Shown: positions 30,119 to 56,522, numbered from the stretch's first letter. The stretch is DNA of 56,522 nucleotides from Candidatus Zixiibacteriota bacterium (GCA_050117845.1 JASFLY010000017.1:1-56522); one strand, 5' to 3'. Notes: generated by a model not told the origin, from the sequence alone. A program made the numbers and translations.

Positions 30119-31018
30119 ATGCGGAAATGGATGATTTGGGCTCTCGTAGCCGTCGTAGCGCTTATAGTCGTTTGGCGGGTCATCGCCTTCGTTAATCGGG
30201 ATAAAGATTTGGCGGAAGATACTACTCCCGTGGTTTTGGCGTCGCCGGCAAGGGTCACGCCTTACGAGGAGTCGCTGGTATTCTACGGAACGCTTGAACC
30301 CCGGGACCAGGTGATGGTCTTTCCGGACGCCCCGGGGAAGGTTATCAGTTTCGCGGTGCGCGAGGGGACGGCGGTCGGCAAGGGTACGACGATAGCCACG
30401 GTGGACCGGGCCATCGCCGGCCTGGACTACAAACCCCTGGTGGTCGCTTCGCCGGCGTACGGCGTCGTGGCCGAGGTGCTGGTCGACCCCGGTATGCAGG
30501 TCGCGCCCAGCACGCCGATGGCGAAGATATACCGGACGAAAGACCTCATTTTGCCGCTCGACGTGGGGGAGAAGGACTTCCCCAAGATCGAAGTCGGCCA
30601 GAAGGTGAAGATAACTTTCGCGACGTTCCCCGACGAAGTCTTCGAAGGCGAAGTCAAGAGGATATTTCCCGCGCTGGATCCGCTCAGCCACATGGTCCGG
30701 GCGGAGGTTACGATAAACGATGCCGAGCGCGAGTTGCGGGCGGGGATGTTCGCCCGGGCCGACATCTCGGTGGGGTATCGCGAGGAAGTATTGTTCGTAC
30801 CTCGCGAGGCCGTCAGCCGGGAAGGCGAAGAGACCTTCGTTTGGGGGCTCGACGGCGGCAAGCTGGCGCGCCGGCCGGTTTGCGTCGGCGCCGTTTGCGG
30901 CGACGCGGTGGAGATAAAGGAAGGTTTGAAGGAAGGGGATCTGGTCGTCGTGCGGGGCGGCGAGGGGCTAGGTGACGGCGTGGCGGTCCACGTGGAAGAA
31001 AGAGGGTGGGCCGAGTGA
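30119..31018 (+). CDS. efflux RND transporter periplasmic adaptor subunit (membrane fusion protein)
   Basis: N-terminal TM anchor, then biotinyl/lipoyl-like and beta-barrel MFP domains (HlyD-like). Precedes the RND pump with overlap. Confidence 0.75.
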   Translation: MRKWMIWALVAVVALIVVWRVIAFVNRDKDLAEDTTPVVLASPARVTPYEESLVFYGTLEPRDQVMVFPDAPGKVISFAVREGTAVGKGTTIATVDRAIAGLDYKPLVVASPAYGVVAEVLVDPGMQVAPSTPMAKIYRTKDLILPLDVGEKDFPKIEVGQKVKITFATFPDEVFEGEVKRIFPALDPLSHMVRAEVTINDAERELRAGMFARADISVGYREEVLFVPREAVSREGEETFVWGLDGGKLARRPVCVGAVCGDAVEIKEGLKEGDLVVVRGGEGLGDGVAVHVEERGWAE

Positions 31019-34000
31019 AGATCCCGGAATTCGCGGTTCGGCGGCCGGTCAGCACGCTTATGCTGACGCTGGCCATCGTGGTCGTGGGGGTAGTGGGCCT
31101 GACGCAACTCCCCATCGACCTCCTGCCGGATATCAGCTATCCCGTGGTGACGGTTATAACGAGTTACGAGGGGTTGGGCCCCTACGACGTCGAGCGCCTG
31201 ATATCGGAACCGGTCGAGAGCTCGCTCAGTACGGTTTCCGACGTAAAGCACGTTACGTCCGTCTCGGAAAAGGGCGTATCGGTGGTGACCGTGGAATTCG
31301 ATTGGGGGACCAACGTAGACGAGGCAACCAACGAAGTCCGCGACCGCCTGAATTCGGTCGAAGCGTATTTGCCGGAAGGCGCCGACGACCCCATTATATA
31401 TAAAATGGATATCAAGGCGATGCCGGTAATGCTGCTCAAGGTGTACAGCGACGCCGGCCGCGATTCCTCCGAACTCCGAACGTACGCCGAGGATATCGTG
31501 AAGCCGGGGCTGGAGCAAATCGACGGCGTCGGCATGGCGATGGTCATGGGGGGCCGCGAGCCCGAGTTCAACGTTCGGGTGGAGCGGGCCGCGCTCGAGG
31601 CTTATAACGTCGATTGGCGCGAGGTGATGACGCGGCTCCAGGCCGAGAACGTGAGTCTGGGCGTGGGCAAAATAACGTACGGTATGACCGAATACACCGT
31701 GCGTTCTCTCGGCGAGTTCACGACCGCGGAGGATATCGGCGCGGTCGTCGTCGCCAATAGGGGCGGGAAGGTCATCCGGGTGCGGGACGTCGCGACCGTC
31801 GAGGACGGCTTCAAGGAGCGGGACGGGTACACGCTGACCGGGCGGGCGGAGAGCGTCATCGTAATGATCCGCAAGCAGGGCAACGCCAACACGGTGGAAG
31901 TGGCGGACGATGTAATGGCGGTCTTGCCCGACGTCGAGAAGCGTTTGCCCGGCGACGTGCGCGTGGGGCAGGCCTTCGACATGTCGTATATGATCAAGAA
32001 CTCCATTCGCAACGTCATGTGGGCGGGGCTGGAGGGGGCCCTTCTGGCCTTCCTCATAGTTTTCGTTTTCCTGCGCAACGTGCGGCCCACGTTGGTCGTC
32101 ATAGTGGCGATTCCGACGTCGGTCCTGTTCGCGCTGGGATTCATGTATTTCGGCGGCTTTACGATCAACGTCATGACGCTCGGGGGGTTGACGGTCGCGC
32201 TGGGCCGATTGGTGGACGACTCCATTGTCGTCACGGAAAATACCTTCCGGCACCTCGCCGTGGGCCGAACGCGCCACGAGGCCGCGGAAAAGGGCGCCTC
32301 CGAAGTGGGAATGGCCATTACGGCCTCCACGCTGGTTACCGTAATCGTTTTCCTGCCGCTCATTTTCGTGAAGGGCATCACCGGCGTCATCTTCAAGTCC
32401 TTCGCCCTTACGGTTACGGCGGCGATGTTGGCCTCTCTGTTCGTCGCCCTCACGGTCGTGCCGATGTTCGCCTCGCGCTTCCTCTCCGCGCGGGCCGGCG
32501 TCGAAAAGGAGTCGGGCATATTCCACCGATTCCGGGAGTGGTACGGCCGGGTGTTGTCCTGGTGCCTTGAGAGGAAAGGCCGGGTCGTCGGCGCCGCGAT
32601 GGCGGCGTTCGCGGCGAGCCTGCTCCTCTTGCTGGTCGTGGATACGGAATTCATGCCGGAAGGCGAGGAGTCGGAATTTATAGTTACCGTGGAGTTGCCG
32701 CAGGGGACGCCCCTGGAGGAGACGGAGCGCGCGGTGGCGCCGCTCTACGATTACGTCCTCGGCCTGGACGGCATCGATTCCGAAGTCATACTGATGGGCG
32801 AAATATCGTCGGACGCCCGCGGGATGAGCATGGGGAACGTGAAGCCGGGCCCCAATACCGCGATCTTGATGGTGTCGCTGGGAGAGGAGGGCGATTACCG
32901 GGAATTCATGAGCGGCTTCAGGTGGGAAGCGCGGAAGATAGCGGGCGCCCGTACCGAGGTCGGGTCGATGTCGGATCTCATGATGGGCGGCGGTAAGCCC
33001 GTGAGTATCGAGATAACCGGTTACGAAGTGGACGAGTTGACCCGCTATGCCGGGGAGGCCGAGCGTCGGATGGGGAAGGTCCGCGGCATTGCGGACGTCG
33101 ATAACAGCATGGCGCGGGGCCGGCCCGAGATAGAGATAGATTACGACCGGCGCAAGGCGGCGGAGATGGGTTTCACGGCCGGGTCCCTCGCGTCCTCGGT
33201 TAGCGTCGCGCTCGAGGGCGAAGTCGTCACGAGGGTCCGGCGCGAGGGTAAGGAGATAGACGTACGTGTCCGCCTCCGCGAGGAGGATCGGCGGACGGTG
33301 GAGGACATCGGCGCCCTTCCGCTCGTGTCGCCGTTGGGGTATACGGTTCCGTTGCGCGAGATAGCCACGATCCGGGAGGTGACGGCGCCCGCGGAAATAA
33401 AGCACAGCGACCAGCGGCGGCTGGCCGAGGTCACCGCCAACATCGAGGGGCGTAGCCTCGGGGCGGTCATCGCCGACGCGCGTACGGCGCTCGAAGGTAT
33501 GGATTTGCCGGCGGGGTACGTGTTAAAATACGCTGGCGAGTATGAACAGATGACCGAGAGTTTCACGTGGCTCGGCGCTATGCTCGCGATGGCGGTGCTG
33601 TTGGTCTATATGATAATGGCCGCCGAATTCGAGTCGCTCGTTCACCCCCTCGCGATAATGTTCGCGATGCCGTTCGCGGCCACCGGCGCTTTACTCGCGC
33701 TGTTCCTCACCGGCGAGAGTTTGGATATAACGGCCTTGATAGGCCTTATAATGCTGATGGGCATAGCGGTCACCAACGCTATCGTCCTGGTGGATTACGT
33801 GAACCAACTCCGGCGGGCGGGGACGCCGCTTCACGAGGCGCTGGTGGAAGGCGCGAAGGTACGGCTCCGGCCGGTGGTAATGACCGCGGTCGCGACCGTT
33901 TTCGCGATGCTCCCGATGGCGCTGGCTCTCCGCGAGGGCCAGGAGCTGGAGCGGAGTATGGCCATAGTCGTGATCGGCGGCCTCGCGACCACCACTGTAC

Positions 34001-34134
34001 TAACGCTGGTGATAGTGCCGCTGGTTTATGCTATCCTGGATAGCTTGGGCGGTACTATAAAAAACAAGTTCGCGAACCTGCTTCATCGAGGAGAAACGGA
34101 GAAGGGGGCCGCCGTTTCCTCGGACGCGTCCTAA
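31006..34134 (+). CDS. efflux RND transporter permease (AcrB/HAE1-like, 12 TM)
   Basis: 1042 aa with the AcrB-like N-terminus IPEFAVRRPVSTLMLTLAIVVVG and repeated TM bundles. GTG start at 31006 or 31015. Confidence 0.9.
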   Translation: MGRVKIPEFAVRRPVSTLMLTLAIVVVGVVGLTQLPIDLLPDISYPVVTVITSYEGLGPYDVERLISEPVESSLSTVSDVKHVTSVSEKGVSVVTVEFDWGTNVDEATNEVRDRLNSVEAYLPEGADDPIIYKMDIKAMPVMLLKVYSDAGRDSSELRTYAEDIVKPGLEQIDGVGMAMVMGGREPEFNVRVERAALEAYNVDWREVMTRLQAENVSLGVGKITYGMTEYTVRSLGEFTTAEDIGAVVVANRGGKVIRVRDVATVEDGFKERDGYTLTGRAESVIVMIRKQGNANTVEVADDVMAVLPDVEKRLPGDVRVGQAFDMSYMIKNSIRNVMWAGLEGALLAFLIVFVFLRNVRPTLVVIVAIPTSVLFALGFMYFGGFTINVMTLGGLTVALGRLVDDSIVVTENTFRHLAVGRTRHEAAEKGASEVGMAITASTLVTVIVFLPLIFVKGITGVIFKSFALTVTAAMLASLFVALTVVPMFASRFLSARAGVEKESGIFHRFREWYGRVLSWCLERKGRVVGAAMAAFAASLLLLLVVDTEFMPEGEESEFIVTVELPQGTPLEETERAVAPLYDYVLGLDGIDSEVILMGEISSDARGMSMGNVKPGPNTAILMVSLGEEGDYREFMSGFRWEARKIAGARTEVGSMSDLMMGGGKPVSIEITGYEVDELTRYAGEAERRMGKVRGIADVDNSMARGRPEIEIDYDRRKAAEMGFTAGSLASSVSVALEGEVVTRVRREGKEIDVRVRLREEDRRTVEDIGALPLVSPLGYTVPLREIATIREVTAPAEIKHSDQRRLAEVTANIEGRSLGAVIADARTALEGMDLPAGYVLKYAGEYEQMTESFTWLGAMLAMAVLLVYMIMAAEFESLVHPLAIMFAMPFAATGALLALFLTGESLDITALIGLIMLMGIAVTNAIVLVDYVNQLRRAGTPLHEALVEGAKVRLRPVVMTAVATVFAMLPMALALREGQELERSMAIVVIGGLATTTVLTLVIVPLVYAILDSLGGTIKNKFANLLHRGETEKGAAVSSDAS

Positions 34135-34145
34135 GGAGGCACGCC

Positions 34146-34781
34146 ATGGCCGAAGATACCAAAACTCCCGTAGTTTCGCGCCGAGAAAGGGAACGGTTGG
34201 CGCACCGGCGCGAAATGCTCGACGCCGCGCGACGGGTCTTCGGCCGTCGGGGTTTCGACCGGGCGACGATGGACGAGATTGCGGAGGAAGCCGGCTTCGC
34301 CAAAGGGACGTTCTATCAACATTTTAAAGACAAGACGGCCCTGTTCATCGTAGTTATCGAGGAGGATTTCAACGAATTAATTAAGGCCATGGACGAGGCG
34401 ATGGCGGCCGCCGACGGCGCGGCGGAAATAGTCAAGGGTTGCGTCACGGCCGAGTTGAAATACTTCGAAAGAAGGAAGGAATTTTACGATATCTTCGTCT
34501 CCCACTGGCCGACCAGCTTCACGGGCGAAATCGACGCCTTGCGCCAGGCGATGCTCAAGCGGGTGGAGGAGTTGACGAGTTCCCTCGCCCGACATTTGAA
34601 GAGGGGCGTCGACAAGGGGGAGATAAAACCGTACGACGTGCGTTTACTCGCCACTCTCCTTATGGGAATGGCGTCCTCTTATAGCTACGAAGTCCTGACC
34701 GGAAAAGCGAACTACTCCATCGAAGAGGCCGCGGAAACCATCGCGAATATATATATGGATGGCGTTCGCGCCGACCGTTAA
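34146..34781 (+). CDS. TetR/AcrR family transcriptional regulator
   Basis: HTH TetR N-terminal motif RRVFGRRGFDRATMDEIAEEAGFAKGTFYQHFKDK. Confidence 0.8.
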   Translation: MAEDTKTPVVSRRERERLAHRREMLDAARRVFGRRGFDRATMDEIAEEAGFAKGTFYQHFKDKTALFIVVIEEDFNELIKAMDEAMAAADGAAEIVKGCVTAELKYFERRKEFYDIFVSHWPTSFTGEIDALRQAMLKRVEELTSSLARHLKRGVDKGEIKPYDVRLLATLLMGMASSYSYEVLTGKANYSIEEAAETIANIYMDGVRADR

Positions 34782-34943: not shown

Positions 34944-35594
34944 ATGTCTGAGGAAAAAAGAAAACCCGGCCGCCGAGAACGAGAGAAATTAACACGGCGT
35001 CAGGAAATACTTAACGCGGCGCGTAAGATATTCGGAGCCCGGGGTTACGAAGGCGCGACGCTGGACGAAGTGGCCCGTGAGGCGGAGTTCGCTAAAGGGA
35101 CGCTTTATAGTTATTTCGACTCCAAAGCCGAATTGTTCACGGCTTTAATGGAATACGAATTCGGCGAACTGACGGACAGGGCGGAAGAAGCTTTGACGGG
35201 GGAAAAGGATACCGTCCGGGCCGTACAGGCAACAATAGTCGCTTTCCTCACGTATTTCGAGGAGAGGATGGACTTCTTCCGCGCGGCGATAGCCCTACAC
35301 AAGTCCGGTTTACACGATGACGTCGAGGTCGTACACGATAAATTCATGCAGCACTTCGGCAGAATAGGCGCGCTACTCGCCGGGAAATTGGCCGAAGGTG
35401 CCCGGGGCGGCGTAATCAAGGAATACGATTCCGGCCTTCTCGGCTTTTTACTCCTGGGAATGGTACATTATTACGCGGCATATATCTTGAAGTTCGGGAG
35501 CGATCGGGCGCGTACCGACGCCGCCGAAATGCTTTCCGACATATATTTGGACGGCGTGCGGACCTTGGCCGCGTGCCGGCCGGAGGAACGATGA
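34944..35594 (+). CDS. TetR/AcrR family transcriptional regulator (second paralog)
   Basis: RKIFGARGYEGATLDEVAREAEFAKGTLYSYFDSK is the HTH motif. The overall architecture is the same as 34146..34781. Confidence 0.8.
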   Translation: MSEEKRKPGRREREKLTRRQEILNAARKIFGARGYEGATLDEVAREAEFAKGTLYSYFDSKAELFTALMEYEFGELTDRAEEALTGEKDTVRAVQATIVAFLTYFEERMDFFRAAIALHKSGLHDDVEVVHDKFMQHFGRIGALLAGKLAEGARGGVIKEYDSGLLGFLLLGMVHYYAAYILKFGSDRARTDAAEMLSDIYLDGVRTLAACRPEER

Positions 35595-36937
35595 ACAAGG
35601 TTAAATGGTTAACGGCTATTATTGCGCTCGCGGCCGGGATAACGCTCGCGGCCGACGAACCGATGACGCTGACGCTTCGCGAGGCGGTGGACCGGGCGCT
35701 CGAGGTCGACGAAACTTACCGCTCGGCGGCCGAGGACGTCGTGATCGCCGAGGCGCAGATTAAAGAGGCCAAGTCGGCCCTCTATCCCCGGGTCACGCTG
35801 GACGCGTCGGCGACCAAGATATACGGCATCGGGGCCATCGTCATGCCCGCCGATTCCTTCGGGCCGGGGTTTCCTCCCGAGGACGTCAACATCGATATGG
35901 GCTACGACGAGAACCTGGCCGCCGGCATAACCGCCACCCAGCCGTTGTACCAGGGCGGCCGGGCGTGGACGGCGTATAGGGCGTCCAAGGCCTATTACGA
36001 TCTGGCCAACGAGGCCCGAAGGCAGGCGTATTCCGACACGGTGTACGAGGTGGTCAAGGCGTACTACGACGCCGTGCTGGCGGCGGAGGCGGTGGGCGTC
36101 GCGGACACCGGCGTCGCCGTCGCCGGGAGCCACGTCCAGGCGACGGAGGACCGCTACGACGCGGGCCTCGTTTCCGAGTACGACGTGCTGCGGGCGCGGG
36201 TGGAACTCTCCAATCTGGAGACGTCGCGCCACCTGGCCGAAGACGGCCGCGCCGCGGCCGCCCGCTATTTACTATCCAAATTGAACCTGCCGCCCGAAAC
36301 CGAACTGGCGATGGTCGACCGGCTGTCGTACGATCTGGCGGTGTACGACCTCGAGGAGTCGCTCGTGGCGGCGGAGGACAATAGGCCGGAATTGGCTCAG
36401 CTCGAGTTAACCCGTCGCTTGGCGGAGGAGAATATAAAAATCGCCCGGGCGGGCGATAATCCGGGGTTGTATTTCACGGCGAACTTTCAGGAATACGCGA
36501 ACGATTTCACTCTCGATTTCGGCGACGAGTGGCAGGATCAGACGACGTTGAATCTCTCCTTTTCGTGGCCTATCTTCGACGGTTTCGCGACGCGCAGCCG
36601 CGTGCGGCAGGCGCGGGCCGATCTGTACAAGGCCGAGCTGAATCAGAACCAGTTGGAGGAAGGTATCGACATGGAGGTGCGGGCCGCGTACGACGCCCTT
36701 AAAACAGCCGAGGGCACGGTCCGGACCAGCAAGGAGAACGTAACGCTCGCGGAGCGGGGCCTGGAAATCGCGCAGGCCCGTTACGACGCAGGTCTGATGT
36801 CGAACCTGGAGGTTTTGGATGCCCAGGCGGCGCTGACGCAAGCGCGCCTCGGCTACTACGAAGCCTTGCACGGATACGCCGTGGCCAAACTCAATATGAT
36901 GCGGGCCCGCGGCGAATTAGACGAAGCCCAATTCTAA
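35591..36937 (+). CDS. TolC-family outer membrane efflux protein
   Basis: Signal peptide MNKVKWLTAIIALAAG. Two OEP repeats with coiled-coil alpha-helical barrel segments. ATG overlaps the TetR stop. Confidence 0.8.
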   Translation: MNKVKWLTAIIALAAGITLAADEPMTLTLREAVDRALEVDETYRSAAEDVVIAEAQIKEAKSALYPRVTLDASATKIYGIGAIVMPADSFGPGFPPEDVNIDMGYDENLAAGITATQPLYQGGRAWTAYRASKAYYDLANEARRQAYSDTVYEVVKAYYDAVLAAEAVGVADTGVAVAGSHVQATEDRYDAGLVSEYDVLRARVELSNLETSRHLAEDGRAAAARYLLSKLNLPPETELAMVDRLSYDLAVYDLEESLVAAEDNRPELAQLELTRRLAEENIKIARAGDNPGLYFTANFQEYANDFTLDFGDEWQDQTTLNLSFSWPIFDGFATRSRVRQARADLYKAELNQNQLEEGIDMEVRAAYDALKTAEGTVRTSKENVTLAERGLEIAQARYDAGLMSNLEVLDAQAALTQARLGYYEALHGYAVAKLNMMRARGELDEAQF

Positions 36938-37529: not shown

Positions 37530-37851
37530 TTTGTCCGTCAACCTTCCATTCGAAAATAATCGACGCGAAATATAACACAAACGGCCGCGTATCGCAATAT
37601 AATTTTGCATTATGAGTTGGGGGTTACGATTTATGGAACCGTTTCTATTATCCGCGAGGCCATTCCTACGTATTTCTTTGCGGAGTAGGCTTGAATGATA
37701 ATAGTTCGTACTATTAATAAATGTCAAAAAAGCGATTGACAAATGTCGCGTAATATATTAAGCTACGGCATGATAATTTTTTTATTACGACGCGACCATG
37801 ATACTAATCGCTTCACAAAGGGTTAGGTTGGTTGCTGACCCTATTTTCAAC

Positions 37852-37886: not shown

Positions 37887-38747
37887 ATGAAGAAGGTAGG
37901 TTTGGCAATTTTAATCGTCGGCGTCGGCGCCGCTTTTGCCGCGGAACCGCTCGTCGACCGGGACCCCGGCGCGGTACCGTGTAACGTCGCCGCGCCTCTT
38001 GACTATAATCCCGCATGGGGTACCGTCGTCCGCTCCTTTTCTTGCGTCGCATACCCTGGCGGCATTTGTAGCACGTACGACAATTACGTCATCACCGGCC
38101 ACTGGGGGACGTCGTTCACCGCGTGGTACGTCTATACCGAGGGCGGGACGCTGGTCCGCACCGTCAGCGGTCTGTCCGGAAACTCGGGCGGCTTCCGAGG
38201 CGGCTCGGCACGGAACCACCTGGGGACGGGTTACATCGTATCGGCTCAGTACACCGGCGGGTGCAATTACTGGACATACTCCGCCGGCGGCAACCCCGGG
38301 ACCACCGGCACGTCTCTGGGCATCCCGGCGGCCGGCCGCGGCATCAGCTGGGACGGCACCTACTACTACGCGACGACGGGCGGTTACAGCACGCCCATCG
38401 GCATCTACACCAGCTCGGGCACGCAGGTCGGTACGGTGCCCGGCACGGTTCATACCCTGGGTATCTACGACAACGCAACTACCTATCCCGGTAACGGTTA
38501 CCTCTACGTCTCCACGCAGTCGCCGAACGTCATGCGTGAAGTAGACCTCGCCACCGGCAACACGACCCGTTCGTTCACGGAGAGCGGTTTCAACGCGGGT
38601 TGCGATTTGGACTGGACTTCCCTCCCCTCCGACCCGTCGATATGGAGTACGCTCCAGGCCAGCCCGGGTTACGTATTCCTGTACGGTAACCCCATCACGG
38701 GTATTGAACCGGCGAGCCTGGGCAAGATCAAGGCAGTGTATCGGTAG
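37887..38747 (+). CDS. secreted Gly/Thr/Tyr-rich protein, unknown family (paralog 1 of 3); possible beta-propeller/lectin-like
   Basis: Signal peptide MKKVGLAILIVGVGAAFA. Repeated G..Y(V/I)..S/T..G blade-like units. C-terminal SLGKIKAVYR. Strong AGGAGG RBS. Confidence 0.6.
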   Translation: MKKVGLAILIVGVGAAFAAEPLVDRDPGAVPCNVAAPLDYNPAWGTVVRSFSCVAYPGGICSTYDNYVITGHWGTSFTAWYVYTEGGTLVRTVSGLSGNSGGFRGGSARNHLGTGYIVSAQYTGGCNYWTYSAGGNPGTTGTSLGIPAAGRGISWDGTYYYATTGGYSTPIGIYTSSGTQVGTVPGTVHTLGIYDNATTYPGNGYLYVSTQSPNVMREVDLATGNTTRSFTESGFNAGCDLDWTSLPSDPSIWSTLQASPGYVFLYGNPITGIEPASLGKIKAVYR

Positions 38748-39026
38748 TAGATACTAAGATGGTAAAGGGGGGGGGCGGTCGGCCACGGCCGTTCCCGCCT
38801 CCTCCCAGTCGGGCGCCGGGCAACGCCGGCGCCCGGCGACTGTTTCGGTTAGGCCGCCGGTTCGATCACTAAAACTTGACAGGTGGGGGAAGCTTTTAGG
38901 TGTTAAACCGGAGAGGATCGGGATGGCGGCGCCGGCCATTCCCGTACGCTGTTGCCGCGGCGTAGGGGATGGCGCCGGTTAACGAGTTAATATTTCGGTA
39001 ATGCTTATATCAATAAGGAGGGCACG

Positions 39027-39887
39027 ATGAAGAAGGTAGGTTTAGCTATTTTAATCGTCGGCGTCGGCGCCGCGTTGGCCGCCGACCCGCTCGTCGACCG
39101 GGACCCCGGAGCGGTGCCGTCTAGCGTCGCGGGGCCGCTCGACTACAACCCGGCGTGGGGTTCCATCCTCTACTCGTTCCCTTGTCTGGCGTATCCGGGC
39201 GGCGTTGCCAGCACGTACGACGGCTACGTTATCACCGGCCACTGGGGAGCTTCTTTTACGGAGTTCTGGGTCTACACCAGGTACGGTTCACTCGTTAGGA
39301 CGGTAAGTGGCCTGACCGGCAACGACGGTGGCTTCCGCGGCGGCTCGGCACGGAATCACCTGGGGACGGGTTACATCGTATCGGCTCAGTACACCGGCGG
39401 TTGCCGTTATTGGGAATACTCCGCCGGCGGTAACCCCGGCACCACCGGCACGCCGCTGGGCGTCCCGGCGGCCGGCCGCGGCATCAGCTGGGACGGCACA
39501 TACTACTACGCCACTACCGGTACCTACAGCACGCCCATCGGCATCTACACCAGCTCGGGCACGCAGGTCGGTACGGTGCCCGGCACGGTTCACACCCTGG
39601 GCATCTACGACAATGCGACTACCTATCCCGGCAACGGTTACATTTACGTCTCCACCCAGTCGCCGTACGTCATGCGGGAAGTGGATCTCGCCACCGGGAG
39701 CACGACCCGTTCGTTCGCGGAGGACGGTTTCAACGCCGGCTGTGATTTTGACTGGGACTACTTCGCGATCTAGAGTACCCAGCAGTCGAATCCGGGTTAC
39801 ATATTTCTATACGGCGACTCTAACTCTCTCTATCGTAATAGCGTTGAGCCGGAGAGCCTGGGCAGGATCAAGGCTGTGTACCGTTAG
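39027..39887 (+). pseudogene. paralog 2 of the secreted protein family, interrupted by an in-frame TAG (39771-39773) at a Trp conserved in paralogs 1 and 3
   Basis: Alignment of the three copies: DLDW..IWSTLQASPGY in copies 1 and 3, versus DFDWDYFAI*STQQSNPGY in copy 2. Reading continues in frame to TAG at 39885-39887 and ends with the family C-terminus ...SLGRIKAVYR. The 5' UTR and signal peptide are near-identical to paralog 1. Confidence 0.5.
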
Positions 39888-39969
39888 AAGGTACCAAGTT
39901 AAAAAGAAGGCGGTATAGGCGGCGTTCGCTTCGCTGCTTACGTTTTCACGCGGTTTGTGTTATCGTTGT

Positions 39970-40368
39970 GCGGGAAGGTGTCCGGGCGGCCGCGGCCGCG
40001 CCTTGCGCGCGAGCCGAGGAAATTCCGGGCTTCACCGGGCAGGGTGCCGGGTAACCCCCGGGCGCCGCGAGGCGACGGAAAGTGCCACAGAAAATACACC
40101 GCCGATGGCCCGCCCCCGGGCGGCGCACAGGTAAGGGTGAAAAGGCGAGGTAAGAGCTCACCGCGGCGCCGGTAACGGCGCCGGCACGGCAAACCCCACC
40201 CGAAGCAAGGCCGCATAGGCGGCGGGACCCGCCCGGGTCACGCGCCTTCGGGCGCGCCGCCGCGGGTAGGCCGCAAGAGCCGGTCGGCGACGTCCGGCCT
40301 AGATGAATGGTCGCCGTCTCTCCGCGAGGGGAGAAACAGAACCCGGATTATGGGACACCTTCCCGTAT
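39970..40368 (+). ncRNA. rnpB: RNase P RNA, bacterial type A
   Basis: Conserved blocks: GAGGAAATTCCGGGCT, GGGCAGGGTGCCGGGTAAC, ACAGAAAA, CACCGCCGATGGCCCG, CAGGTAAGGGTGAAAAGG, GGTAAGAGCTCACC, CACGGCAAACCCCACCCGAAGCAAGGCC, GGCCTAGATGAATGG and ACAGAACCCGGATTAT. P1 helix pairs GGGAAGGTGTCC (39972-39983) with GGACACCTTCCC (40353-40364). Blocks match the E. coli M1 RNA recalled from memory. Confidence 0.85.
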
Positions 40369-40396
40369 TTCCCCGGCGCTCGCGACGAAAAAAAGC

Positions 40397-40425
40397 TTGA
40401 CATGCGGCCCGTTTTTTCTTAAATT
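40397..40425 (+). promoter_or_regulatory. sigma70-like promoter TTGACA-N17-TAAATT upstream of paralog 3
   Basis: Read from the sequence, just downstream of the rnpB 3' end. Overlapping short inverted repeats ACACAT..ATGTGT / ATGTG..CACAT follow at ~40460-40490. Confidence 0.4.
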
Positions 40426-40550
40426 TCCGTTAGATAAAATTGAATTGAGCGCGGCCCGTCGTTACACATCCTCTATGTGTGGCACATAAGGGAAAACTGC
40501 AACGGCGGGACGAAAAAGCAAACCCCCTCAAACCCTTAAAGGAGGGTAAG

Positions 40551-41402
40551 ATGAAAAAGCTCGCTTTAATCATGGCGGTATTTGTAGCCAGCGCTGCTTT
40601 TGCTGCCGAACCGCTCGTGGACCGGGACCCCAACGTAATCCCGTCTAACGCTGCTACGCCTCTTGACTACAATCCGGCGTGGGGTTCCACCATCCGCTCG
40701 TTCTCCTGCGTTGCGTATCCGGGCGGCATCGCCAATACGTACGACGGCTATGTCATCACCGGGCACTGGGGAACGTCGTTCACGGCGTGGTACGTCTACA
40801 CCGAAACCGGGTCCCTCGTCCGCACCGTCAGCGGCCTGTCCGGAAATTCCGGCGGCTTCCGCGGCGGCTCCGCGCACAACCACTTGGGCACCGGTTATAT
40901 CGTATCGGCTCAGTACACCGGCGGTTGCAATTCCTGGACCTACGCCGCTGGCGGTAACCCCGGCACCACCGGTACGGCCCTGGGCATCCCGGCGGCCGGC
41001 CGCGGTATCAGCTGGGATGGCACTTACTACTACGCCACTACCGGTACCTACAGCACGCCGATCGGTATCTACACCAGCACCGGTTCGCAGGTCGGTACGG
41101 TGCCCGGCACGGTTCACACCCTGGGCATCTACGACAACGCGACCCACTACCCCGGCAACGGTTACATGTACGTCTCCACGCAGTCGCCGAACGTTATGCG
41201 CGAGGTAGACCTCACCACCGGTAATACGACCCGTTCGTTCGCGGAAACCGGCTTCAACGCCGGCTGCGATCTCGACTGGGATGCGGACGCCATTTGGAGC
41301 ACCCTCCAGGCGAGCCCGGGCTACGTATTCCTGTACGACGGCCCCGGCCACACCGGCGTTCAGCCGTCCAGCCTCGGCAACATCAAGGCTCTCTACCGCT
41401 AA
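40551..41402 (+). CDS. secreted Gly/Thr/Tyr-rich protein (paralog 3 of 3)
   Basis: ATG after GGAGGG RBS. Signal MKKLALIMAVFVASAAFA. Body co-linear with paralogs 1 and 2. C-terminal SLGNIKALYR. Confidence 0.6.
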   Translation: MKKLALIMAVFVASAAFAAEPLVDRDPNVIPSNAATPLDYNPAWGSTIRSFSCVAYPGGIANTYDGYVITGHWGTSFTAWYVYTETGSLVRTVSGLSGNSGGFRGGSAHNHLGTGYIVSAQYTGGCNSWTYAAGGNPGTTGTALGIPAAGRGISWDGTYYYATTGTYSTPIGIYTSTGSQVGTVPGTVHTLGIYDNATHYPGNGYMYVSTQSPNVMREVDLTTGNTTRSFAETGFNAGCDLDWDADAIWSTLQASPGYVFLYDGPGHTGVQPSSLGNIKALYR

Positions 41403-41430
41403 ACGGCGGTAATACCTTAGCTAAAAGAAA

Positions 41431-41453
41431 GGGCCCCTTTCGGGGCCCTTTTT
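41431..41453. terminator. bidirectional rho-independent terminator (convergent genes)
   Basis: GGGCCCC-TTTC-GGGGCCC hairpin flanked by an A-tract upstream and T5 downstream. Confidence 0.6.
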
Positions 41454-41538
41454 GTTTTACGGAAAGGCGGGGGGATGGAACGGGGCCGGGATAAATCTTT
41501 ACTTAATATCGGCGACAAGGCCAATTACCTTTCGGCGG

Positions 41539-43491: not shown

Positions 43492-45426
43492 ATGGAAGAG
43501 GGCCAAAGAGAATATAGGGCGTACACCGTCGGAACCGCGGGCCACGTGGATCACGGCAAGTCGGCGCTCGTGCGGGCGCTGACGGGCGAGGACCCCGACC
43601 GTCTCCCGGAAGAGAAGGAGCGGGGGATGACTATTGACCTCGGCTTCGTGCACGCGGATTTCGGCGATGGCGTAATCGCGACTTTCATCGACGTTCCGGG
43701 CCACGAACGCTTCATTCGGACCGCGGTCGCCGGCGTCGCCGCCATCGACCTCGCTCTGTTCGTGGTCGCCGCCGACGAGGGCGTGATGCCGCAGACGCGC
43801 GAGCACCTCGCCGTTCTGCGGCACCTCGGCATCTCCCGCGGCATCGTCGCGTTGACGAAGGTGGACATGGTGGAGGAAGAATGGCTCGAACTCGTCCGCG
43901 ACGACGTGGCGAAGTTTTTCGCGGGGTCGTTTCTGGCCGAGGCGCCGATGCTCGCCGTGTCCTCGACCACCGGGGCCGGGGTGGAGGAGCTGCGGGAGGC
44001 GCTCAAGGCCGCTCTCGCCGGCGTCCCGCCGCGGCCCGCCGGTACGGCCTTCCGCATGGCTATTGACCGTGTCTTTTCCTTGAAGGGCCACGGCACTATC
44101 GTGGCGGGGACGGTGGCCTCGGGCGCCGTGAAGCCGCGGGACGAACTCGAGATTCAGCCCCGCGGTCTGGCCGTCCGCGTGCGCGCGGTGCAGAGTCGCC
44201 ACGAGAGCGTCGACGTGGCCACGGTCGGGATGCGGACCGCGCTCAACGTCGCCGGCGCGGACCAGGACGAAATCCAGCGCGGTTACGAAATAGCGGAACC
44301 CGGCCTGCTATCGGCGACGCGGCGCATCGACGTGGAGTTGAATATGGACGCGGGCCAGATCCGCCACCGCGCGCGCGTCCGCCTGAACAAGGGAACGGCC
44401 GAGGCTATGGGGCGCGTACTGCTGCTGGCGGCGGACGTGGCCGAGGCCGGCGAAAGTCACTTCGCCCAGGTTGTCCTCGAAGAACCGATAGTGGCGATTC
44501 GCTTCGAGCCGTTCGTCGTGCGGGACCCGTCGACGCTGCGCCTCCTCGGCGGCGGTAAAATACTGGACCCGTTCCCGACGCCCCATCGGCGCCAGCCTTG
44601 GGTAGTGGAGGAACTCGCGAAACTGAAGGCGGCGGAAGGCGACCCGGCCGCGGTCCTGCGGGCGGTGTTTACCCGGGCCCGGGGGCCGAAGCGGGCGCAC
44701 CGGCCGGCGGAGTTGGCCCACGCGCTCGCTCCGGCCACGGTCGCCGACGTGGAGCGTTTGCTGGACGAACTCGTGGCGGAGGGCGTGGCGGCGCGGCTGG
44801 GGTCGGAGTATATCCCGGGGAAGGACGCGGACGCGGTCAGGGAAGCGGCGCTCAAGGCGGTGGGGGACGCGTTGGCTCGCGACCCCGTGCGGGAAGCCGT
44901 GGGTCGCGACGAGATCCGGGCCAAACTGCCGTACCGCCTCTCGCCCGAGAGCTGTACGACCCTTTTGGAGGCCATGGTCGACGAAGGCTCTTTGGAGACT
45001 CGCGGCGGCGGGTACCGTCCGCCGGGCGAGGGGCCGGCCTTGTCTCCCGCGCACGAGGAGGCGCTCGCGGCACTGAACGAGTTTATGGAGGCGGGCGCGC
45101 CTTTGCGGGGGCGGGAAGAGGTGGACCAGCTGTTGAGCGGCTATCCCGAAGGGGAGACGATGCTCAAGTACGCCCTCAGCCGGGGCATACTCGTAATGTT
45201 GCCGGAGAAGGTAGTTGCCCGGGCCGAGTTCGTGGCGTCGATGCAAGACGAACTCGTCGCTTATTTAAAGAAACACGAAACGGTCCGGGCGGCCGATTAT
45301 AAAGATATGTATAACGTGTCCCGGAAGCAGGCGACCGCGCTCCTGGATTATTATTACGAACAGGGAGTAACGGTACGCGAGGGCGGAACGCATCGCCTGT
45401 CCCCCCGGCATTTAAAGGACCGATAA
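43492..45426 (+). CDS. selB: selenocysteine-specific translation elongation factor
   Basis: GTPase motifs GTAGHVDHGKS, DVPGHERF and TKVD. Domain II/III, then a long C-terminal extension with winged-helix-like repeats characteristic of SelB (644 aa). Confidence 0.85.
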   Translation: MEEGQREYRAYTVGTAGHVDHGKSALVRALTGEDPDRLPEEKERGMTIDLGFVHADFGDGVIATFIDVPGHERFIRTAVAGVAAIDLALFVVAADEGVMPQTREHLAVLRHLGISRGIVALTKVDMVEEEWLELVRDDVAKFFAGSFLAEAPMLAVSSTTGAGVEELREALKAALAGVPPRPAGTAFRMAIDRVFSLKGHGTIVAGTVASGAVKPRDELEIQPRGLAVRVRAVQSRHESVDVATVGMRTALNVAGADQDEIQRGYEIAEPGLLSATRRIDVELNMDAGQIRHRARVRLNKGTAEAMGRVLLLAADVAEAGESHFAQVVLEEPIVAIRFEPFVVRDPSTLRLLGGGKILDPFPTPHRRQPWVVEELAKLKAAEGDPAAVLRAVFTRARGPKRAHRPAELAHALAPATVADVERLLDELVAEGVAARLGSEYIPGKDADAVREAALKAVGDALARDPVREAVGRDEIRAKLPYRLSPESCTTLLEAMVDEGSLETRGGGYRPPGEGPALSPAHEEALAALNEFMEAGAPLRGREEVDQLLSGYPEGETMLKYALSRGILVMLPEKVVARAEFVASMQDELVAYLKKHETVRAADYKDMYNVSRKQATALLDYYYEQGVTVREGGTHRLSPRHLKDR

Positions 45427-46774: not shown

Positions 46775-48169
46775 TTGACCCGGCGCCGGTATTATGATAA
46801 CTTTCACGAGTTAATATGCCGCTTTCGGCGGCTTTATATTTATATCGTGACCGGACTTTTTAAAAAGATACTCGGCCTCGGGCCGGTAAGCGCGGTGGTG
46901 TGCGCGGCGCTCGTAATGTCTTGCGGCGCGCCGACCGGCGACCCCGTGGGCTCGCCCGGCCCCGACCGGCCCCTTACCAAAGTAACCCTCTATCCCCCCG
47001 ACGTCGATTGGCGGGATACGTACTACGACGTATTCGTGCCGACGGGCCGGCATTACCGGCTGGCGGTCGGCAGCTACGGCGCCTCCGGCGAGCGTTTCCG
47101 CAGTCGGATGCTTTTGCGGTTCGAACTCGGCGACGTTCCGAAGAGGGTGCCCGTTTCCAAAATCGAGGCCGTACTTCTCAAACTCCCGTACTTGCGCGTC
47201 TCCGGGACGCTTAACGACGATATTTACGCCGACCCCAACGTGACGTTGGAGGCGAGGCCGCTCCACCGGGATTTCGACGAGGACCGGGCCACCTGGTGGC
47301 GGGCCACCCGCAAGGAGAACTGGACCGTCGAGGGCGGCGATTTCGGGCCGACGGTCGCGACGGCCGTCGTCGGCAAGCCGAGCTACCAGCGCGAGTTCGT
47401 AACGCTGGATATAACGCAACTCGGCATGGAATGGTTCTCCAACCCCTTCCGGAATTACGGCGTTATGCTCAAGGGCAGGGACGAGGAGCTGGGCCCCGGG
47501 ATCAAGGAGTTCTACTCCACCAATACCTACAGCAAGGTCGACCCTCCCCGCCTCGAGATAACCTACCTCAACGACGACGACGAGAAAACCTACGAGGTTA
47601 TTCTGCCGGAGAAGGACTGTTTTATAACCGATTACGAGGGCGAATTCGGCGGGGAAGAGGTCCACGGCTACGACGAGTACCTCGACTTCGGTTCGTTCAA
47701 CGGCTACGGCCGGCGAGTGTTGATCTACTTCGACCTGACGCCGGCGATATCGACGATCCCGGCCGACGCCTCCATCGCCCGGGCCAAGCTCCGGCTGTAT
47801 TACGTCCCGGCGAGCCGCGACGAGAGGGTGTACGTGGCGCTGTACCGCCTGACCGAAGCTTTCAGGGAAGGGGCGAAGCAGGACGAACTTGAGTTCCAGA
47901 AATACCACAACAACGTCGCCTATATCGACCGGGAGTTCAAAATCGGGGCTCCCGGCTACGTGGATTTATATATTAACCCGATGGTCCAGGAGTGGGTCTC
48001 GGGCAGCCACCTCAATTTCGGCCTGATGGTAAAGGCGCCCGACGAGGGCAAAGCCCAGGCTTTCCCGCGCTTCGGTTCGCGCGACAACGGCCAGACGGAC
48101 CGCCGGCCCTACCTCGAAATAGAATATACGGTGCCGGCCGACCCGTGGTATACGTCTCCCGGTGAATAG
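46775..48169 (+). CDS. putative lipoprotein with two repeated ~150-aa domains (DNRLRE/CBM-like, tentative)
   Basis: A probable later start (GTG ~46847) gives signal/lipobox KKILGLGPVSAVVCAALVMSC. Two repeats end ...GVMLKGRDEE...PPRLEITY and ...GLMVKAPDEG...RRPYLEIEY. Confidence 0.4.
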   Translation: MTRRRYYDNFHELICRFRRLYIYIVTGLFKKILGLGPVSAVVCAALVMSCGAPTGDPVGSPGPDRPLTKVTLYPPDVDWRDTYYDVFVPTGRHYRLAVGSYGASGERFRSRMLLRFELGDVPKRVPVSKIEAVLLKLPYLRVSGTLNDDIYADPNVTLEARPLHRDFDEDRATWWRATRKENWTVEGGDFGPTVATAVVGKPSYQREFVTLDITQLGMEWFSNPFRNYGVMLKGRDEELGPGIKEFYSTNTYSKVDPPRLEITYLNDDDEKTYEVILPEKDCFITDYEGEFGGEEVHGYDEYLDFGSFNGYGRRVLIYFDLTPAISTIPADASIARAKLRLYYVPASRDERVYVALYRLTEAFREGAKQDELEFQKYHNNVAYIDREFKIGAPGYVDLYINPMVQEWVSGSHLNFGLMVKAPDEGKAQAFPRFGSRDNGQTDRRPYLEIEYTVPADPWYTSPGE

Positions 48170-48195
48170 TGATAGTTAAAGTAATATCTTCGCAT

Positions 48196-49389
48196 ATGCG
48201 TTATATGGCGCTGTTATCCTTGGGGATAGCGCTGGTCGTTGCGTCGGCCGGGGCCAATTCGATATTGTCCGAAGGGACGCCCGGCGACCCCGGGGCCGGC
48301 GTGGACGCCCGCGCCGTCGGGATGGGCGGCGCGGCCCTGGGCATCTTCGACGGGAGCAACGTCAACGCCCTCAATCCGGCTGTTCCGGCCTCGTACGAGC
48401 GGGCCGTATTCAACCTCACGCTGATACGGGGCTACAATTCATACGAGACCGAACAGGGCAAAAGCGTCGAGGTCTCGTACGACATCCCCCGGGCGGAATT
48501 GACGATTCCGGTGTCGCGCGTCCTCGCGACGACCATATCTTTCTCGCAGGAGCTTAATCAGAATTACGAATACACCAGGCCGCTGGAAGCGGAGGGCAAC
48601 ACAATCGGCACCAGCCGCGTCCGGCGCCAGGGTTCGCTGTATACGTTCTCGCTCGGCCTCGCCGGCCGTCTGGGCGAGAAGTGGTACGTCGGCGGGGCGG
48701 TAGGTTACGACTTCGGCGCGCCCAAGGAAATCTTCACCAAGGAGTTCAAGGAGAAAGGCTATTCCAAGGTAGAGGAAAACCTCGAGGCCGCGTACAAGGG
48801 CGTCAGGGGGACGGTCGGCGCCGGGTGCTTGCTTACCGATAGACTTTCGGTCGGGGCGACGGCCGAAGTGTTCAGTAAGCACCGCGTGGACGAAACCATC
48901 TTCACGGAGTACGCGACGCTATACGAGAACGAGTACGATTTTACGATGCCCTGGTCCGCGGGCGCGGGCGCGGCGTACATAATCGGGCCGCGGGGCCGCT
49001 TGGCCGCCGACGTCCGATATACCGGGTGGTCCGGCTTCGCCGTGGACGGCGAGGGTCGGAGATACCGGGACACGCTCGAGTTCCACGCCGGCGTCGAGGG
49101 ACGCATATCCTCGGCCAACCGTGGCTTTTTCCTCTGGCGGATGCCGTACCGCGCGGGCGCGTTCTATGTCCCGTGGTACGCGACGGACCGGGGCGAATTC
49201 TCGAAGGTCGGGTTCTCGGTGGGCGCCGGGTACCTCTTCGCCAACAACGAGAACAGCCGCCTGGACTTCGCCCTCGAGGTGGGCCGACGGGGCGACCTCG
49301 CTTCGGCCGGCATACAGGAACAAACGTTGGACTTTTATATATCCGTGGTGGGGCTTGAAACCTGGTTCGGGAAGCGCGAGGAAGATTGA
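48196..49389 (+). CDS. hypothetical outer-membrane beta-barrel protein
   Basis: Signal peptide MRYMALLSLGIALVVASAGA. Alternating amphipathic beta-strand pattern rich in G/Y/F with aromatic C-terminal region (GLETWF). The track ORF starts at 48169. Confidence 0.35.
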   Translation: MRYMALLSLGIALVVASAGANSILSEGTPGDPGAGVDARAVGMGGAALGIFDGSNVNALNPAVPASYERAVFNLTLIRGYNSYETEQGKSVEVSYDIPRAELTIPVSRVLATTISFSQELNQNYEYTRPLEAEGNTIGTSRVRRQGSLYTFSLGLAGRLGEKWYVGGAVGYDFGAPKEIFTKEFKEKGYSKVEENLEAAYKGVRGTVGAGCLLTDRLSVGATAEVFSKHRVDETIFTEYATLYENEYDFTMPWSAGAGAAYIIGPRGRLAADVRYTGWSGFAVDGEGRRYRDTLEFHAGVEGRISSANRGFFLWRMPYRAGAFYVPWYATDRGEFSKVGFSVGAGYLFANNENSRLDFALEVGRRGDLASAGIQEQTLDFYISVVGLETWFGKREED

Positions 49390-49990: not shown

Positions 49991-51025
49991 ATGCCGGAAT
50001 ATACGGTCGATGAACTCGCGGCCGCGGTCGGCGGCGAAGTCGTGGGCGACGGCAGTGCCGTCATAACGGGCGTCAACGGCATAGAGGACGCCGGCCCCGG
50101 CGAAGCCGCCTTCATCGCGAACCCCAAATACCGGTCCGCCCTGCGGGACACCCGCGCCTCGGTCGTGATAGTGAGCCCGGACGTCGAGGCCGCGAACGTA
50201 ACGCTGATACGCGTACCCCACCCGTACCCGGCCTTCGCCCGTGTCATCACCATGTTCGCCCCCGCGCCGGAAGTCCCGACCGGCGTCTCGGAACTCGCCC
50301 ATATTCATGAAGATGCGCAAATCGGCGAAGGCGCCGGCGTGGGGCCGTTCGCCGTCGTGCGCGAGGGCGCGAAGGTGGGCGCGCGGACGACCATCGGCTC
50401 CGGGACGTACGTCGGCTCGGGCGCCGTCGTGGGCGAGGACTGCCTGCTCTATCCGGGCGTAACGCTGCGGGAATACGTCCGGGTCGGCGACCGTTGCATT
50501 ATCCACTCCGGTACGGTCGTCGGTTCCGACGGCTTCGGCTTCGCCACCGAGGGCACGGTTCACCATAAAATCCCCCAAATAGGGACCGTGGTCGTCGAGG
50601 ACGACGTCGAAATCGGCGCCAACTGCGCCATCGACCGGGCGACGATGGGGGAGACGCGCATAGGCCGCGGGTCAAAGCTCGACAACCTCATCCAGGTGGC
50701 CCATAACGTCAAAATAGGCGCGGGGACGCTCATCGCCGCTCAGACGGGCATCTCCGGCTCCACCACCATCGGCGACTACTGCGTCTTCGGCGGCCAGGTG
50801 GGCGTGGTGGGGCATATTCGCATCGAGGACCACGCCATCATAGCGGCTCAGAGCGGCGTTACGAAGTCGGTGAAGAGCGGCGTAACGCTCTTCGGCCGGC
50901 CCGCCCGGCCCATCATCGAGGTTAAAAAACGCGAGGGGCGCGTCGCCCTTCTCGGTAAGTACTTCGGCCGCGTTAAGGAACTCGAGCGGGAAGTGGAAGA
51001 GATTAAAAAGAAACTCAAGGACTGA
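49991..51025 (+). CDS. lpxD: UDP-3-O-(3-hydroxyacyl)glucosamine N-acyltransferase
   Basis: The N-terminal LpxD-type domain is followed by left-handed beta-helix hexapeptide repeats. 344 aa. Confidence 0.9.
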   Translation: MPEYTVDELAAAVGGEVVGDGSAVITGVNGIEDAGPGEAAFIANPKYRSALRDTRASVVIVSPDVEAANVTLIRVPHPYPAFARVITMFAPAPEVPTGVSELAHIHEDAQIGEGAGVGPFAVVREGAKVGARTTIGSGTYVGSGAVVGEDCLLYPGVTLREYVRVGDRCIIHSGTVVGSDGFGFATEGTVHHKIPQIGTVVVEDDVEIGANCAIDRATMGETRIGRGSKLDNLIQVAHNVKIGAGTLIAAQTGISGSTTIGDYCVFGGQVGVVGHIRIEDHAIIAAQSGVTKSVKSGVTLFGRPARPIIEVKKREGRVALLGKYFGRVKELEREVEEIKKKLKD

Positions 51026-51028
51026 CGC

Positions 51029-56387: not shown

Positions 56388-56522
56388 CTAATTCTTCGGG
56401 TGGAGCGTTAGCGGTAAATCGCTTTAATGCTCCCGAACGAGGACGGGGATACGCTTACCGTAGCCGGGCAATGTACGCGATATACGTACCCGTTTCCGGC
56501 GCAGGCTACCCAGAGGTACTGG

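Follow-up and report, generated by a model that had tools for sequence, protein, structure and literature searches.

What raises a question at positions 37887-41402 of a 56.5-kb contig from a Candidatus Zixiibacteriota metagenome-assembled genome (MAG) is that three paralogous genes for secreted proteins, with the RNase P RNA gene rnpB lying among them, all close on the same short peptide. The entire contig (JASFLY010000017.1, 56,522 nt) was analyzed and is called the window below. An initial annotation had described the array, guessed at a small beta-propeller fold and proposed that the C-terminal peptide be looked for as a sorting signal in other genes. Our main finding is this peptide, which is apparently an undescribed and widespread C-terminal tag. 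The best explanation overall, to which we assign a probability of about 55%, is that the genes encode Sec-exported, acidic five-bladed propeller paralogs, one of them truncated, which carry a strictly C-terminal cationic tag for sorting to, or tethering in, the cell envelope.

The tail-bearing genes of the window are:
37887-38747, + strand: copy 1 coding sequence, 286 amino acids (aa), comprising a signal peptide (37887-37940), a disordered N-terminal linker of about 25 aa, a predicted five-bladed beta-propeller (residues ~45-270), a further linker and the tail
38709-38747, + strand: C-terminal tag of copy 1, P-A-S-L-G-K-I-K-A-V-Y-R plus stop codon, found by pattern match
39027-39887, + strand: copy 2, full frame including the remnant
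39027-39773, + strand: copy 2 as called, 248 aa, closing at an in-frame TAG
39774-39887, + strand: copy 2 remnant past the premature stop, in frame and still coding for ...EPESLGRIKAVYR followed by a stop
40551-41402, + strand: copy 3 coding sequence, 283 aa from the ATG at 40551, with signal peptide (40551-40604) and tail (41364-41402)
56408-56522, - strand: 3' end of a fourth gene with the tail, incomplete because the contig stops here, coding for ...GYVYRVHCPATVSVSPSSFGSIKAIYR plus stop

Sequence, position and distribution of the tail

All three copies have a AAGGAGGG ribosome-binding site 5-6 nt ahead of the ATG, a signal-peptide-like N-terminus (MKK, a hydrophobic run and AFA/AE) and the coded ending SLG(K/R/N)IKA(V/L)YR, in agreement with the initial annotation. 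The richness in Gly, Thr and Tyr that it noted was also borne out, these residues making up 15.7%, 12.3% and 8.2% of the mature proteins against 8.7%, 5.4% and 2.9% in neighboring genes. The array of three co-linear paralogs is real, and the interpretation put on it was supported overall; the observation was confirmed in part, since details of the copy 2 stop, the coordinates, the leader palindrome and the age of the copies had to be corrected. Against the lengths first given (286, ~287 and 284 aa), copy 1 has 286 aa, copy 2 is called at 248 aa and copy 3 has 283.

The tail consensus is V-x-P-x-S-h-G-[KR]-I-K-A-h-Y-R-COOH, where h is a hydrophobic residue. In an alignment of 26 homologs of the family P, G, K and the final R were invariant and S, L and I nearly so. 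Over 116 proteins the consensus was V-[AG]-V-x-P-A-S-[LFVI]-G-[KR]-I-K-A-L-Y-R; P was present in 112, G and the central K in 116/116, and the last residue was R in 106 and K in 10. When the wider superfamily was aligned, the sole invariant columns were P275 and G279, both in the tail, which on these alignments is the most conserved part of the superfamily.

The distribution of the tail was determined by DNA-pattern scans in which the tail was back-translated with its stop codon included. The window gave 4 matches against 0 expected, one of them within the copy 2 remnant (39849-39887). With one genome per GTDB species, 93 loci were found, concentrated in a few MAGs; a handful, from Firmicutes, Nostoc and Bradyrhizobium, were short chance open reading frames (ORFs). 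Zixiibacteriota CSMAG_2382 and A-C077 had at least 20 tailed ORFs each, SCS5bin.27 and SRP239594_co1_49 at least 16 each, binchicken_co103_96 at least 13 and a complete Coatesbacteria chromosome (CP070633) at least 10, with one or two matches each in Krumholzibacteriia, Eisenbacteria, Gemmatimonadota and one Fibrobacteraceae MAG. The metagenome scan yielded at least 120 loci. With a protein pattern that did not include the stop, a stop codon nevertheless followed the motif directly in 332/337 cases (144/145 genome loci and 188/192 metagenome loci), demonstrating that the motif is confined to the very C-terminus. No description of it was found in Pfam, NCBIfam or the literature searched, an absence that is no proof that it was never noted.

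The fourth tailed gene of the window, which ends SPSSFGSIKAIYR followed by a stop, belongs to a different propeller subfamily ('YRVHCP') that is also present in two other loci (L083, where a 256-aa protein is similar, and L006). Another contig of the same MAG carries a further superfamily member, PVH29_10805 (P0046, 243 aa), ending ...PASVGRVKALFQ.

The tail on different protein bodies

The 242 distinct tailed proteins fell into 26 body clusters, so that the tail closes at least that many. The window genes belong to the largest cluster (167 members), the small-propeller superfamily, which the family hidden Markov model (HMM) matched at E 1e-8 to 1e-32. Four other tailed proteins scored above the Pfam gathering score, as MAM-like (PF20773), right-handed beta-helix (PF13229), lamin-tail (PF00932) and CBM96 (PF24517) proteins, and further bodies were NHL-like six-bladed proteins or, in several cases, had no match. 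The tag is therefore modular. An N-terminal hydrophobic, signal-like segment, called heuristically, was present in 206/231 complete tailed ORFs. The idea that the tail is a sorting signal to be sought beyond the three genes was thus fruitful: it was met on the fourth window ORF, on at least 16-20 ORFs in each of several related MAGs and on unrelated passengers, the last being what a sorting signal predicts.

We read the tail as a sorting tag because it is modular, strictly C-terminal, more conserved than the bodies that bear it, placed on Sec-exported proteins, and lineage-restricted with many copies per genome. These five properties are shared with those that defined the known C-terminal sorting signals. 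The PEP-CTERM, LPXTG and GlyGly-CTERM signals were originally discovered by a similar in-silico census.

Propeller fold and family

The guess of a small beta-propeller was upheld by an AlphaFold2 model built with the homolog alignment (predicted local distance difference test [pLDDT] 82.9, mostly above 85 in the core, residues 45-270). The model is all-beta, its 20 strands forming five blades of four strands each. The pLDDT was below 50 at residues 20-40, the N-terminal linker, and in the tail, residues 271-286, which was not packed on the fold.

As the initial annotation had found, the proteins could be assigned to no named family by sequence. Copies 1 and 3 gave nothing relevant when scanned against Pfam and NCBIfam, even at E<=1, and a profile of 26 homologs had 0 matches at E<=10 among all PDB sequences. 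None of the named propeller repeats (NHL, YVTN and others, of six or more blades) was detected, no Pfam repeat rising above threshold. Neither of the two outcomes that the initial annotation had named as fatal to its view, membership of a known NHL/YVTN family and a tail private to the three genes, was thus observed. A search of 5.8 billion clustered proteins found 28 homologs, all of 200-291 aa and none with a Pfam domain, and 13 came from exhaustive phmmer against 1.84 billion representatives. Only hypothetical proteins were retrieved with a profile of the wider superfamily, and their propeller Pfam matches were generic and sub-threshold. As far as these searches show, the family is part of a large, often tandem superfamily confined to Zixibacteria-like members of the Fibrobacteres-Chlorobi-Bacteroidetes (FCB) group. 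Tandem arrays of 3 to at least 7 tailed small-propeller genes occur in other MAGs (L020, CAZWAM010000100.1, with at least 7; L184 with 5; and L044), so the tandem amplification seen in the window is nothing unusual for the superfamily. One superfamily propeller, P0066 (278 aa, from the Joint Genome Institute [JGI]), has no tail and has an N-terminal transmembrane anchor, which may be an alternative means of tethering.

The five-bladed architecture is also that of glutaminyl cyclase (PF05096), and the glutaminyl cyclases 3MBR, 3NOK, 2FAW and 3NOL were the best structural matches of the window protein, which raises the question of whether the proteins are periplasmic enzymes of this type with an incidental tail. 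We regard this as highly improbable: identity in the structural alignments was 9-16%, no Pfam or PDB sequence match appeared even at E = 1-10, and 10-20 divergent paralogs per genome are unlike a housekeeping enzyme. The window family differs from glutaminyl cyclase in having no sequence relation to it, no conserved candidate catalytic residues as judged from the superfamily alignment, a huge paralog expansion and the C-terminal tag. No polar residue outside the tail was invariant across the superfamily alignment, which argues against a conserved active site. Nor was sequence similarity found to YjiK/SdiA-regulated proteins (PF06977; PDB 3QQZ), as hhalign to E. coli YjiK gave a probability of 0.4% and there was no Pfam match.

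The model also bears on two ways in which the tail could act without sorting machinery or as part of an assembly. The mature proteins are acidic apart from the tail, which holds 3/11 of their basic residues; AlphaFold2 drew residues 278-285 as a helix, and the spacing of L, I and V/Y, read directly from the sequence, suits one hydrophobic face. The tail might accordingly be a short amphipathic, cationic stretch with direct affinity for anionic lipid or lipopolysaccharide (LPS), a machinery-free tether to a membrane face like the C-terminal helix of PBP5. This seems to us distinctly unlikely, since only about 8-10 residues could be helical, in a zone of pLDDT below 50, and since lipid-binding helices tolerate substitutions whereas P, S, G, K and the terminal R/K were near-invariant in the 116 sequences. 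These near-invariant residues and the exact C-terminal position point to recognition by a protein and not by lipid.

A docking or assembly peptide, which would add a strand to, or plug into, a tailed propeller or a scaffold and so make a surface array, is suggested by the blade junctions (T-G-S-h-V-x-S-F), as the tail P-x-S-h-G-K-I-K stands where the next blade strand would begin. The massive tandem paralog expansion noted above agrees with such an array, as do the strong promoter, ribosome-binding site and terminator signals, which suggest an abundant protein. On the other hand, the tail occurs on beta-helix, MAM-like, lamin-tail and CBM96 proteins that have no propeller, the model leaves it undocked on its own propeller, and no partner was identified. 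We consider docking very unlikely.

Comparison with known C-terminal signals

The tail resembles the PEP-CTERM/exosortase, LPXTG/sortase and GlyGly-CTERM/rhombosortase signals in being a short C-terminal motif on many unrelated exported proteins, lineage-restricted and in many copies per genome. In the sortase-type signals, unlike the tail, the motif is joined to a transmembrane helix and a basic cluster. There is no hydrophobic span in the tail, only 7 residues (K-I-K-A-L-Y-R) following the conserved Gly, so the tripartite structure is lacking; no associated sortase-like gene was found, and the NCBIfam CTERM models matched none of the tailed proteins scanned. The lack of a transmembrane segment after P-x-S-h-G led us to discard it as a possible cleavage site of the sortase type. 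An Lpp-like covalent link between a C-terminal Lys and peptidoglycan was also discarded, since 91% of the sequences end in Arg.

With the beta-signal of outer-membrane proteins the tail shares a short C-terminal motif, a Gly, an aromatic residue near the end and the need for a free C-terminus. The beta-signal, however, closes a beta-barrel and has an aromatic residue at position -1 (Phe in most cases, otherwise Trp or Tyr; the ending of the TolC-like protein in the window is ...AQF), whereas the tail ends in Arg or Lys and is borne by soluble passengers.

The closest likeness is to the type A domain of the type IX secretion system (T9SS; TIGR04183, Por_Secre_tail), which also stands at the extreme C-terminus of Sec-exported, non-lipoprotein FCB cargo of many passenger folds and ends in hydrophobic residues followed by a basic one. 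Both signals occur in the same genomes: TIGR04183 domains were found in tail-bearing genomes (51.4 and 36.8 bits) on neighboring, non-tailed proteins. Both are also used by a homologous passenger (BLASTP 4e-14), which in one form continues for about 24 residues to the tail end and in the other for another 190 or so residues, the last of which form a T9SS domain. No T9SS component was found within the window.

The tail could therefore be a minimal T9SS signal, the stand-alone equivalent of the last beta-strand of the type A domain, read by PorV/SprA. All tail lineages belong to the FCB group, and the T9SS domains of these genomes end x-[KR]-[KR]-h-h-h-h-[KR] (AAKRLAVVK, ATKKLVVAR), loosely like G-[KR]-I-K-A-L-Y-R. 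In some Porphyromonas T9SS domains the last ~22 residues are critical for secretion, which also favors this explanation. Nevertheless, TIGR04183 (cut-off 23 bits) matched none of the five tailed proteins tested (copy 1, copy 3 and three others). The type A domain is a folded, HMM-detected beta-sandwich of about 70-100 residues, whereas the tail has 13-16 residues, is predicted to be disordered, has no HMM match and has an invariant P, S, G and central K of its own that are without counterpart in the T9SS domain ends. Moreover, one would not expect two equivalent signals to persist stably side by side in the same genome. We judge this main rival unlikely, though the least so of those considered. 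Taken across the sequence comparisons, the tail fails the defining tests of every known class examined, sortase-type, T9SS and beta-signal alike.

Proposed role of the tail

The tail is probably a new envelope sorting or anchoring tag recognized through its free C-terminus. The protein would first be exported by Sec and its signal peptide removed; an envelope component would then recognize the exposed C-terminal peptide, including the free carboxyl end, and bring the protein to the cell surface or outer membrane or tether it there, where the propeller would serve as a binding or structural module and not as an enzyme. The data themselves show the fold, the history of the locus, and the modular nature and strictly terminal placing of the tag; the recognition, destination and machinery in this scheme are what we infer. 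A more far-reaching proposal, made tentatively and with the odds somewhat against it, is that P-x-S-h-G-[KR]-I-K-x-h-[YF]-[RK]-COOH marks a previously unrecognized sorting or surface-anchoring pathway, parallel to T9SS and using a linear peptide and its own machinery, in uncultured FCB phyla (Zixibacteria, Coatesbacteria, Krumholzibacteria, Eisenbacteria and some Gemmatimonadota).

Several points weigh against a sorting tag. About 70% of the tailed proteins belong to one propeller superfamily, so that part of the signal could be family inheritance together with a few domain transfers, and the signal-peptide calls were heuristic. A search for the recognizer among genes recurring near tailed genes identified none; those that recur (a tetratricopeptide repeat protein, a cysteine desulfurase, an ATP-binding cassette transporter and similar genes) do so because related MAGs share gene order. 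To our knowledge, a 13-residue linear peptide with neither a transmembrane segment nor a folded domain is unprecedented among characterized bacterial sorting signals. The organisms that bear the tail are, furthermore, uncultured.

Origin of the array and position of rnpB

The features that bear on the history and expression of the array are:
37736-37741, + strand: -35-like TTGACA of copy 1, following an A-tract and lying 151 nt ahead of the ATG, with an ambiguous -10
38767-38837, + strand: likely terminator 3' of copy 1, two strong GC-rich hairpins with a weak U-tract (RNA fold -69.4 kcal/mol, z = -4.4)
38876-38881, + strand: -35-like TTGACA of copy 2, 151 nt upstream of the ATG, with a degenerate -10
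39974-40366, + strand: rnpB, bacterial RNase P RNA class A (RF00010, 264.8 bits, model positions 1-367)
40397-40425, + strand: copy 3 promoter, A-tract and TTGACA-N17-TAAATT (promoter scan 10/12), beginning 31 nt past the 3' end of rnpB
41428-41460, + strand: intrinsic terminator of copy 3, in which a T-run comes after a GC stem of 10 bp; the palindromic stem also scores on the opposite strand

The rnpB gene and the TTGACA-N17-TAAATT promoter of copy 3 were both found where the initial annotation had seen them, the former as a full-length covariance-model match (gathering threshold 100 bits). The inherited nature of the rnpB adjacency had been missed, as had the premature stop of copy 2 and the age of the duplicates. 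In relatives the gene order is TolC-like / rpmE(-) / rnpB / single copy / Rotamase_2 (PpiC-like rotamase)(-) / selB. This single-copy order was found in SCS5bin.27 (75% protein identity), in the P0017 lineage (45%) and in the P0011 and P0005 contigs. In the first three rnpB lies directly upstream of the single-copy gene; the P0005 contig ends about 500 nt upstream of the gene and does not cover the position of rnpB. The A-tract and CTTGACA after rnpB were invariant across four lineages, the spacer also having a -10-like element.

Because relatives share both the gene order and the post-rnpB promoter, the nesting of rnpB is inherited. By this comparison its adjacency to the propeller gene is ancestral and did not arise with the array, copy 3 is by position the ortholog of the relatives' single-copy gene, and copies 1 and 2, which lie upstream of rnpB, are specific to this lineage, both extras being present only in this population. 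An ancestral single copy with its own strong A-tract/TTGACA promoter directly past rnpB was joined by two copies gained upstream of rnpB in this population; since then the copies have exchanged segments by gene conversion, and copy 2 has gained a nonsense codon. The triplication and the nesting of rnpB are ordinary local evolution.

The A-tract and CTTGACA sites lie at 40367-40425 in the window, at 1028-1100 in L001, at 5873-5950 in L097 and on the minus strand of L007. Their conservation is unusually high given 45-75% protein identity, and an UP element is possible. When the three upstream regions of the window were aligned, TTGACA was invariant, standing 154 nt from the ATG in copy 3 against 151 nt in the other two. 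Facing the promoter region of copy 1 is a strong divergent promoter-like site (37727-37698, - strand; 11/12). The palindrome that the initial annotation saw in a leader shared by copies 1 and 2 is perfect in copy 1 (ATATCGGTA-A-TACCGATAT), degenerate in copy 2 and absent in copy 3, and was rejected as a conserved element as it is perfect solely in copy 1. A permissive Rfam search of the ~150-nt leaders returned only rnpB and sub-threshold matches in coding sequence or in downstream terminator hairpins.

Age of the copies and gene conversion

Pairwise nucleotide identity among the three copies was 0.82, 0.81 and 0.79, and dS was 0.5-0.7, indicating that the duplicates are old overall and not recent. 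The dN/dS ratios of 0.13-0.24 reflect purifying selection and were highest in pairs with copy 2. The longest run of identity between copies 1 and 2 was 68 nt (38385-38452 = 39525-39592), a length reached in 0/2000 simulations at 82% identity, and informative sites were strongly mosaic along the gene (permutation p<1e-4). On the strength of the mosaic sites and the 68-nt run, the identical stretches are attributed to gene conversion. The initial annotation had offered recent duplication or gene conversion for these stretches, and it is the second that stands. The stretches themselves were present with one range off by one, 38388-38460 corresponding to 39528-39600 (72/73 identity).

Premature stop in copy 2

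Codon 249 of copy 2 (PVH29_10275 in NCBI; copy 3 is PVH29_10285, P0002) is an in-frame TAG at 39771-39773; the corresponding codon of copies 1 and 3 is TGG (Trp). Two independent JGI metagenome assemblies encode an identical 248-aa product, and one of these agrees with the window at 100% identity over 3646 nt; the stop is therefore no accident of assembly. Past the stop, the 13-codon tail gave a dN/dS of 0.12 against that of copy 1. From its reading frame, copy 2 would be either a recent pseudogene or a truncated, tail-less variant.

Neighboring genes

Upstream of the array, an AcrB-type pump gene (31006-34134) and a TolC-like gene (35573-36937) enclose two ORFs with similar N-termini (34146-34781 and 34944-35594, + strand); the gene in the matching position in L097 is TetR_N. 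Ribosomal protein L31 (37014-37529, - strand; PF01197 at residues 1-64) is extended at its C-terminus by some 105 residues, among which Lys, Ala, Pro, Glu and Thr are frequent, and the L31 proteins of relatives have 158-206 aa. Further upstream, two adjacent paralogous ORFs (7222-8226 and 8265-9095, + strand) both begin M(M/T)RAIIAGIVTAAVA.

Downstream lie selB (43492-45426) and an lpxD / lpxC-fabZ cluster (49991-52363) followed by three ORFs. The lpx cluster, the TolC-like and AcrB-type genes and selB together indicate a diderm with LPS that uses selenocysteine. Between selB and the lpx cluster, an exported protein with Disaggregatase-repeat and CBM96-like domains (46775-48169, + strand) is followed by a 406-aa ORF with no Pfam match (48169-49389, + strand), and both keep the same position in SCS5bin.27.

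Significance of the tag

The LPXTG motif, the PEP-CTERM signal and the T9SS domain each opened the way to a whole secretion or anchoring pathway. For annotation, the tail turns several hundred hypothetical proteins in our scans, and probably more, into a defined class. If the proposed role is correct, such a tag, closing dozens of exported proteins per genome in several candidate phyla, would mark the envelope or surface proteome of these unculturable organisms, would provide a handle for finding its recognizer by phylogenetic profiling, and could explain the big expansions of small propellers in the lineages that carry it.

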